DNA of 64,000 bases, from positions 622 to 64,621 of IMG/VR virus record IMGVR_UViG_2886218242_000014; one strand, given 5' to 3'. This document shows positions 10,832-11,320 of this stretch, in pieces. Source of the stretch: a virus. Taxonomy: Duplodnaviria; Caudoviricetes. Numbering within the stretch: position 1 is the stretch's first letter; the number at the start of each line of letters is the position of its first letter. Made by a program: the position numbers and the translations under genes. The notes below the pieces were generated by a model that was given only the letters and a program-made list of their open reading frames with translations, was not told the DNA's origin and made no database searches.

Positions 10832-11130
10832 ATGGTTTCCTCCTCATTAGTTTTAACTCTATATTGTCAAAGTTTAATGTATAAGCATATTGGCAGTTCA
10901 TCCAAAAAGGAGCCAGCTCAGTAGTTAAACCAAGCTGGGATATCAATCATCTGGAGAGATGAAAATGACCTAAATGGATGTTTCCCCGTATCATTCTACG
11001 GAAGTCCTACATAGGAGGTGTAAGTGTGCTTCCTCGCTAGCTACCTCTAAAGGGGGAAGAGATAACTACCAAGCAAGTACCCTTGTTTAATTGCTTCGTA
11101 TATAAAGTAGAGTTAGACCCCTTATCGGTC

Positions 11131-11157
11131 TCATATATATAGTACGCTTAGTGTGAC
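11131..11157 (-). promoter_or_regulatory. Satellite copy of the phage late-type promoter motif GTCACA-N6-GTACTATATA
   Basis: Minus strand reads GTCACA CTAAGC GTACTATATA TATGA, as at 13552, 51366 and 58751. Confidence 0.7.
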
Positions 11158-11320
11158 CTCTCTTAATTGCTTCATATATGTAGTAGTGTCTACTTGCTAG
11201 TATCGCGTCTCGAAAGGTTAACTCCTCCTATTGAATTACGTTTCAAAATAAGACACAAGATATACCTGCAAAGAACGAACAAAAGAGCTACCCTCCTCAG
11301 GTAACTCAACTTCATCAATA

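Follow-up and report, generated by a model that had tools for sequence, protein, structure and literature searches.

The DNA analysed here, referred to as the window, is a stretch of 64,000 nucleotides that makes up nearly all of one 64,621-bp virus record (IMGVR_UViG_2886218242_000014; Caudoviricetes). The left 12 kb of the window is an island, which encodes a tyrosine integrase and a replication-initiator-like protein (phrog_1835), together with a leftward operon of BRO-N, xre, a winged helix-turn-helix (wHTH) protein, Rha/Ant, unknown genes, a terS-like gene and a TMP homologue. The other part belongs to a phage of about 52 kb; positions 12289-64000 are collinear with Bacillus siphophages of 50-52 kb (MT700412 and the IMG/VR records G001-G004), and encode a head protease, capsid, tail, DNA polymerase III alpha, terL, portal and a sigma factor. 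Upstream of xre, on the strand of the operon, the island carries an array of boxes that belong to the late-promoter class of this phage and its relatives, and a conserved structured RNA lies between the last box and xre. The first-pass annotation of this DNA had described the boxes as tandem copies of the late promoter of a helper phage, directed into the operon of a satellite.

The late-promoter class was defined by aligning the regions upstream of the protease, portal and nuclease genes of six complete phages, and a weight matrix of its constant part was built from their orthologous late sites. The promoter is bipartite, and consists of a phage-specific word of ~6 nt, a fixed 6-nt spacer of free sequence and a constant box, [G/C]TACTATATA..TGAA. 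A 50-kb phage has only two or three boxes that score at least 18 bits, and these invariably precede protease, portal or nuclease/terS genes; in the present genome, three belong to the phage part, and a further three lie in the island, inside a stretch of 76 nt. The location of the phage sites ahead of the protease-capsid-tail, portal and nuclease/terS genes bears out the earlier description of the motif as a late-type promoter of the phage. The early genes have a promoter family of their own, sigma-A-like and with an operator-like spacer, which fits the assignment of the GTCACA class as the late class. When the window was searched for GTCACA-N6-GTACTATATA with up to three mismatches, five matches were obtained against 0.85 expected, a number reached by none of 100 shuffles; the GTCACA word is exact at three phage late sites and recurs at a weaker fourth one. 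The word lies 10 nt from TATATA and ~16 nt from NNTGAA, the usual -35/-10 spacing being 16-18 nt.

All three orthologous late sites of one genome carry one word, while the words differ between the six complete genomes: GTCACA in this phage, GTCCC[T/C] in MT700412 and G003, GGTAAC in G001, AGCGCGG in G002 and GGTAGT in G004. Relatives found via terL, which are partial phage records, provided the further words GTCTGG, GTTGC[C/G], ACTAC[C/G], GT[C/T]ATG and AGCAAG. Since orthologous sites differ between genomes while paralogous sites agree within a genome, a genome-specific trans-acting factor is needed to account for the pattern. Leaders of ~200 nt, which are kept across the related phages, follow the late-type sites ahead of the nuclease and RepA-like genes (51393-51560, and 13150-13390 on the minus strand); they contain CTCTAGAG/CTATAGAG units in repeated form, a hairpin and a CTCATATAGT motif that is conserved.

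In the island, three late-promoter boxes of at least 18.7 bits each, with box starts at 11186, 11145 and 11110, are located on the minus strand at 11095-11200 (Table 1). The motif previously reported there, GTCACA-N6-GTACTATATA, was recovered at 11136-11157 with no mismatch; it is the middle box (box 2), which is perfect and carries the word of the phage in the same record. The spacer of box 2, TAAGC, is unrelated to the phage spacers AGATA, TGCAA and GGCAA. The 17-mer ATATATGAAGCAATTAA, with five matches in the window against 0.17 expected, was also present as claimed, both as an exact copy identical to phage positions 13571-13587 and as a 16/17 copy. The two 17-mer copies, however, belong to boxes 1 and 3, the words of which are AGCAAG and AGGGGT, and GTCACA occurs in box 2 only, so that the array does not consist of tandem copies of one promoter. 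The word of box 1 is used at the portal site of phage L076, which has a terL with 96% identity to that of this phage, and the word recurs in the related islands L066, L068 and L069; that of box 3 is also found at the last box of L067, a distinct island. In ten GTCAC[AG]-N6-box sites (four from the phage, one from this island and five from other islands), the information per part was 1.92 bits for the word, 0.51 for the spacer and 1.65 for the box. Retention of word and box around a free spacer suggests a bipartite recognition site rather than a recent copy. On its upstream side, the array is preceded by a terminator-like hairpin after the BRO-N open reading frame (ORF), which is predicted to insulate it from upstream transcription. 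A 36-nt stretch just upstream of the array (11229-11264) is a short dispersed repeat; several B. cereus-group runs have it in a number of unrelated contigs, one of which is an RNA contig.

Table 1. Positions of the promoter boxes, the conserved RNA and other features in the window
Feature	Position	Strand	Remarks
Box 1	11171..11200	-	Word AGCAAG (11198-11193), then CTACTACATATATGAA; contains the exact 17-mer at 11163-11179; 19.8 bits
Box 2 (middle)	11130..11157	-	Complete helper-type late promoter, GTCACA-N6-GTACTATATATATGAG; no mismatch; 22.3 bits
Box 3 (last)	11095..11122	-	Word AGGGGT, then CTACTTTATATACGAA; runs into the 16/17 copy of the 17-mer at 11087-11103; 18.7 bits
Conserved structured RNA or leader	10902..11084	-	~183 nt, between last box and xre; minimum free energy -62.9 kcal/mol, z -3.9
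xre-type HTH gene	10622..10831	-	First gene of the leftward island operon (xre, wHTH, Rha/Ant, terS-like, TMP); Pfam HTH_26/HTH_3
Terminator-like hairpin	11285..11307	-	After the BRO-N ORF
Segment identical in island and phage	11707..12159	.	453 nt; 54-nt 'core' and Ant N-terminal part
Weaker late-type site	13392..13413	-	Faces the RepA-like gene; 2 mismatches (in box)
Phage late promoter	13552..13587	+	Before head protease gene; GTCACA word, box, GAAGCAATTAA leader
Phage sigma factor	40118..40807	+	Pfam Sigma70_r4, phrog_1740
Phage late promoter	51366..51393	+	Before nuclease and terS-like gene
Phage late promoter	58751..58778	+	Between terL stop and portal gene

The gene order of the island was found again in nine loci from metagenomes and IMG/VR, which represent eight distinct islands (L073 duplicates L072), and all eight have arrays at the same spot. 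In the main-lineage islands, two to seven boxes occupy the 250-700 nt upstream of xre on the operon strand, and boxes of at least 18 bits cluster only there, nearly all of them in that orientation. Known phage words are mixed, two to four at a time, in 7/9 islands (this island and eight relatives): GTCCC, GTTGC, AGCAA and GTCAC in L069; GTCCC, GTTGC, ACTAC and GTCAC in L067; GTCCC, ACTAC, GTCTG and AGCAA in L066; AGCAA and GTCAC in the present island. When eleven phage 5-mer words were scored at exactly positions -12 to -8, one was present at 21 of 62 [GCT]TACT sites of the arrays, as against 16 of 1271 such sites elsewhere in the loci (Fisher odds ratio 40, P = 2e-20); shifted-register controls gave 0-2 matches. 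Each word has one or two sites per island, and mostly there is a single site of each of several words, which argues for the sensing of multiple helpers rather than for titration. The suggestion of the first-pass annotation that the extra copies might titrate the helper factor has accordingly been rejected as the main role of the array, as numerous sites of a single type would be expected.

When close islands are compared, no segment is less conserved than the array (46-71% identity), and arrays vary by insertions and deletions between strains, as evident from run X4, where 73 different letters stand at 11090-11095. The protease leader GAAGCAATTAA(TGAG) persists in many boxes, and one array box of L072 (5877-5960) still has the ribosome-binding site (RBS) and ATG of the phage protease with a short reading frame; these remnants indicate that new boxes were probably captured by recombination with infecting phages. 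L066 has two additional high-scoring boxes on the minus strand (GTCTG and GTCCC, at 6223 and 6313) that face away from xre and form a divergent array. In L070 and L075, two or three copies of a different box, GGTATGTTATATATG, with varying upstream words are present 100-390 nt upstream of xre, and this box possibly represents the promoter class of another phage family.

The last box is followed at a fixed distance of ~24-27 nt, in all islands, by the start of the conserved RNA, which is 156-185 nt long across the islands. None of 200 shuffles of the segment in the window folds as well as the segment itself. The predicted structure contains a hairpin with the loop UCCCCCUUU at 11038-11068, another with the loop CCUCCUA at 11006-11024, a CUCC-tetraloop hairpin at 10947-10962, and a terminator hairpin at 10938-10913; the last of these has the features of an intrinsic terminator, with a G+C-rich 10-bp stem and then CUCCUUUUU, CUCC-UUUUU following the hairpin. 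The CCUCCUA loop stands within ACACCUCCU, which resembles the anti-Shine-Dalgarno (anti-SD) sequence of 16S rRNA. Independent folds of seven islands share one plan, comprising a long 5' hairpin with a C-rich loop (UCCCCCUUU, CACCCCUU, ACCCCCUA and similar), the CUCC-tetraloop hairpin and the terminator, which is followed by (C)UCC and a U-run.

Overall, the RNA is the most conserved segment in the comparison of close islands, with 96-98% identity among the present island, L068 and L069, as compared to 83% for the wHTH gene and 87-97% for xre; only the xre of L069 (97.1%) matches it. Its structure is also maintained where the sequence varies. RNAalifold detected compensatory changes in 7 of 19 pairs, and the terminator stem is kept by such changes. 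In the CUCC hairpin, 96.7% of the cells are paired and 4/6 pairs change on both sides, the covariation score being 0.93 against 0.27 for shuffles (0/500 reach 0.93), and slid controls pair 20-50%. The CUCC loop is invariant over the varying stems, except in L071, where it reads CUCU. No Rfam family reached the gathering score in the whole window, nor did any at E <= 5 in 10800-11350 except a chance lncRNA match. Inspection of 10840-11315 for small ORFs revealed only unconserved ones of 20-45 aa, none with an RBS on the RNA strand. Promoter prediction gave no good sigma-A candidate for the stretch from the terminator to xre, a region that holds a conserved ATGCTTATACATTAAAC stretch. Coverage by the RNA run X20 was confined to 11225-11506, at depth 2.

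The phage sigma factor is the candidate reader of the word. In alignments of this phage and eight related ones, its first ~160 aa are conserved with a mean identity of 81%, whereas the last ~70 aa, which make up region 4, show only 45%; region 4 is the only hypervariable part of the protein. The pair of phages that share a word is also the closest pair in region 4. In an unbiased scan, 649 windows of fifty residues from all six-phage ortholog sets were correlated with word similarity, and the C-terminal windows of sigma ranked 2nd-3rd of 649 and displayed the largest same-word excess (+18 to +20 points). It is most likely, on this pattern, that region 4 would read the word and the conserved N-terminal part the constant box. 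The variation of region 4 looks like diversifying evolution tied to the promoter word.

These observations lead us to favour, with moderate confidence, the reading that the array consists of late-class promoters of helper phages, which would be recognised by the phage sigma and would feed the conserved RNA, so that the programme of the island is tied to late transcription of the helper. A phage would act on the array once in its middle or late phase, provided that its sigma fits one of the words: host RNA polymerase bearing this sigma would then start at the matching box. Here the matching word would be the GTCACA of the 52-kb phage. The transcript would be the conserved structured RNA, of ~200-280 nt, with its C-rich/anti-SD loops, and would end at, or partly read through, the terminator just before xre and the terS/TMP operon. 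The helper-exploiting programme would in this way be coupled to late transcription of the helper, and, as boxes with words of several phage lineages are stacked, the island could respond to several helpers. The RNA itself may act in trans, as a C-rich small RNA (sRNA) driven by the helper sigma, or in cis, as a leader with a terminator that controls how far transcripts continue into xre, terS and TMP. A wider scheme can be put forward tentatively, as a possibility that we hold to be somewhat less probable than its opposite. Phages would diversify sigma region 4 together with all their late words to escape eavesdropping satellites, and satellites would collect one promoter per circulating sigma specificity by recombination at the conserved box, all of them feeding one anti-SD RNA that launches or protects the satellite programme; the word set of an island would then predict its helper range.

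Several results weigh against the promoter reading or limit its reach. The distance of 10 nt between word and TATATA misfits the usual -35/-10 spacing, and either TATATA or NNTGAA may be the -10 element. Among nine phages, sigma region 4 and the word are only modestly correlated (rho 0.32, permutation P 0.057); an equally good correlation with the word is shown by a linked 92-aa ORF at 41432, 300 nt from the sigma gene. L070 and L075, the most distant islands, are without the TACTATATA box. When the RNA was examined by RNAduplex against 128 translation-initiation regions, no specific target emerged; the duplexes were long and unspecific, and the xre site ranked 110th. Finally, the terminator-like hairpin (10913-10938) separates the boxes from the operon. 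The boxes do face the leftward operon, as had been claimed, but with the RNA and the terminator lying before xre, they may not drive the operon directly. The same qualification applies to the earlier proposal that the helper sigma switches on the satellite genes, of which the part concerning recognition has gained ground, in that the word is phage-specific, tracks region 4, and is present in the island in the form used by its phage.

The terminator-like hairpin ahead of xre is accommodated by a late leader with gated read-through, of the lambda PR'-6S-tR' type, in which the boxes are real helper-dependent promoters and the RNA acts only in cis, without a trans function. Transcripts would stop at 10913-10938 unless an antiterminator of the helper or island, or an alternative fold, allowed them to run into xre, terS and TMP. 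The order of promoter(s), short structured RNA, terminator and operon is as this model requires, no convincing sigma-A promoter lies between the terminator and xre, and the CUCC that separates the U-run from the stem in all islands suggests a leaky terminator. On the other hand, a gene for an antiterminator was not identified, C-rich loops that are conserved and single-stranded typify the trans-acting sRNAs of Firmicutes, and the conserved stretch after the terminator could be a promoter or operator of xre itself; a purely cis-acting leader is considered rather unlikely. The short distance between word and TATATA bears on a different alternative, since it is more like an activator site or a MotA-box-like position than a -35 element. 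The word could then be read by another phage-encoded DNA-binding late activator, and the sigma, or host sigma-A, would read only the constant box. Two candidates for such an activator are the RepA-like protein (12289-13140), which is variable (only 54-64% identical among phages), and the product of the 92-aa ORF, in view of its correlation. Region 4 of sigma, however, is the classical reader of upstream promoter elements and the one part of an otherwise conserved sigma that is hypervariable, and the ORF may simply be linked to the sigma gene, which makes this alternative distinctly unlikely.

A more sceptical view holds the boxes to be non-functional remnants of recombination between islands and the protease promoter region of infecting phages. 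The retained leader and the phage RBS and ATG in L072 fit such an origin, as do the ~25 nt of phage sequence kept upstream of the promoter in the first box of the islands, the array differences between strains, and the identical 453-nt segment shared with the phage, which demonstrates that recombination occurs. Remnants would be expected to decay, and not to persist as one copy each of several words; instead, word and box are kept while the spacers are completely different, the place and nearly the orientation are the same in every main-lineage island (L066 alone also having its two opposite-strand boxes), and the last box keeps its distance from the conserved RNA. Such an explanation is therefore held to be improbable. 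Titration, in which the array binds the helper sigma-holoenzyme and starves the late promoters of the helper as a form of interference, would be served by clustered, high-scoring sites and by a replication initiator-like gene through which the copy number could rise. As many copies of the word of the resident helper would be expected instead of one or two sites per word, and as a conserved transcript lies downstream of the array, a decoy role is considered very improbable.

Satellites are known to sense their helpers via proteins, as Staphylococcus aureus pathogenicity islands (SaPIs) sense helper proteins through the Stl repressor, or via a shared activator site, as P4 does. In the present case, the sensing element would be a stack of promoters, each matched to a different phage sigma allele and readable from sequence. 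The statement in the first-pass annotation that P4, like the phage-inducible chromosomal islands (PICIs), ties its expression to late activators of the helper holds for P4, in which ogr as well as delta stimulates the expression of late genes of both P2 and P4 (PMC8628076), but not for SaPIs, where RinA does not control operon I and the packaging operon is LexA-controlled (PMC3152322). Like the P4 promoters Psid and PLL, which respond to P2 Ogr and P4 Delta, the island promoters share the recognition sequence of the helper late promoters. They differ in that the factor is most likely a sigma instead of an Ogr-type activator, the word is lineage-specific, words of several helper lineages are stacked and a conserved structured RNA would be made first; in addition, the island has a Gram-positive host and falls outside the P4 gene set. 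With SaPIs and other PICIs, the island shares its small size, integrase, replication/regulatory and terS-like genes, lack of capsid genes and probable chromosomal location and helper dependence, but sensing is here proposed at the promoter level and a TMP homologue is carried.

Redirection of host RNA polymerase to the promoters of phage structural genes by a phage sigma is familiar from cascades such as that of SPO1 (gp28, gp33/34). Unlike in SPO1-type cascades, word and region 4 diversify here among close relatives, a parasite copies the promoters, and the spacing of word and box is non-canonical. The RNA is comparable to the C-rich Firmicutes sRNAs RoxS/RsaE in its size class (~150-200 nt), its intrinsic terminator and its several C-rich anti-SD-like loop motifs, the island RNA having loops of this type in UCCCCCUUU, CCUCCUA and CUCC as well as a CUCC tail; it differs in that it matches neither their sequence nor an Rfam model and is satellite-encoded behind phage-type promoters. 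A lineage-specific word tied to a hypervariable sigma region 4, the stacking of several words, and an RNA with anti-SD loops as first product appear to be new. If the promoter reading is true, it could be predicted from sequence only which phages trigger which B. cereus-group islands, the sigma region 4/promoter-word pairs would form a natural orthogonal set, and the puzzling hypervariability of region 4 among near-identical phages would have a possible reason. The analysis further brings to light a conserved small RNA, previously undescribed, at the entrance to a satellite operon.

The gene content of the island is PICI-like, with an integrase, a replication initiator, the xre and Rha/Ant regulators and a terS-like packaging gene, and no head genes were detected among the island ORFs scanned. 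Its terS-like protein (phrog_6177) shows 34% identity to the phage copy at 52684-53400 and has close homologues (55-99% identity) on the chromosomes of B. cereus, B. thuringiensis, B. toyonensis, B. mycoides and B. wiedmannii. These island genes are absent from all of the related phages. The island is a small element of the Bacillus cereus group that probably parasitises phages. Protein and alignment searches of genome contigs with the terS-like protein yielded no B. cereus-group island, the only hits being distant ones in Metabacillus and others with a different layout; a protein search of viral contigs with Rha/Ant gave no match, a comparison of the island with the phage collection by distant blastn returned nothing beyond generic matches to the Rha/Ant domain, and the islands in the loci are not flanked by direct repeats of 22 nt or more.

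Island and phage are joined in the record through a segment that is identical in both (Table 1), the first 54 nt of which (11707-11760) are repeated at the end of the record (63947-64000). Integration of the island in the Ant-like gene of the phage at a 54-nt attachment (att) core was considered, since G004 has this gene intact. It was set aside because L068 and L069, which lack a second core, carry the core together with the N-terminal part of Ant as far as 12190, and because the repeat in the source run is of the two-in/two-out kind, at depths of 34x/15x for one pair and 104x/92x for the other. Among the contigs of X1, the probable source isolate, the shared 453-nt contig is entered from the island contig (depth 34) as well as from a phage contig of 42 kb (depth 104). 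Two contigs follow it, one of the phage (depth 92) and one of 1.2 kb (depth 15), the second of these diverging at 12190, the exact end of homology to the other islands. The isolate thus probably holds a chromosomal island at 1x and the phage at ~3x, the record being an assembly path through the shared identical segment; a minor island-phage cointegrate form may also exist. The 54-nt terminal repeat is probably an assembler overlap rather than an att duplication. The matching promoters had earlier been taken as independent evidence that the two elements are a matched pair, and box 2 indeed has the exact word of the phage with which it was assembled, but their physical linkage is probably due to the assembly path. 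The identical segment and the co-occurrence in one isolate are independent signs that island and phage meet and recombine.

Three minor observations concern the surrounding sequences. OR599646, named Pectobacterium phage PcaP2EGY, covers the same span as Bacillus phage 1_ICo-2020 with the same 82.6% identity to the window, and its host label looks doubtful. The distant Metabacillus island with a terS-like gene, L046, has at 8840-9259 a homologue of the N-terminal part of the phage head protease (58% identity over 142 aa). The hairpin at 4532-4568, after the island TMP gene, is 78% complementary to the hairpin at 18897-18933 that precedes the tail-chaperone/TMP genes of the phage, and represents an inverted-repeat copy of it.
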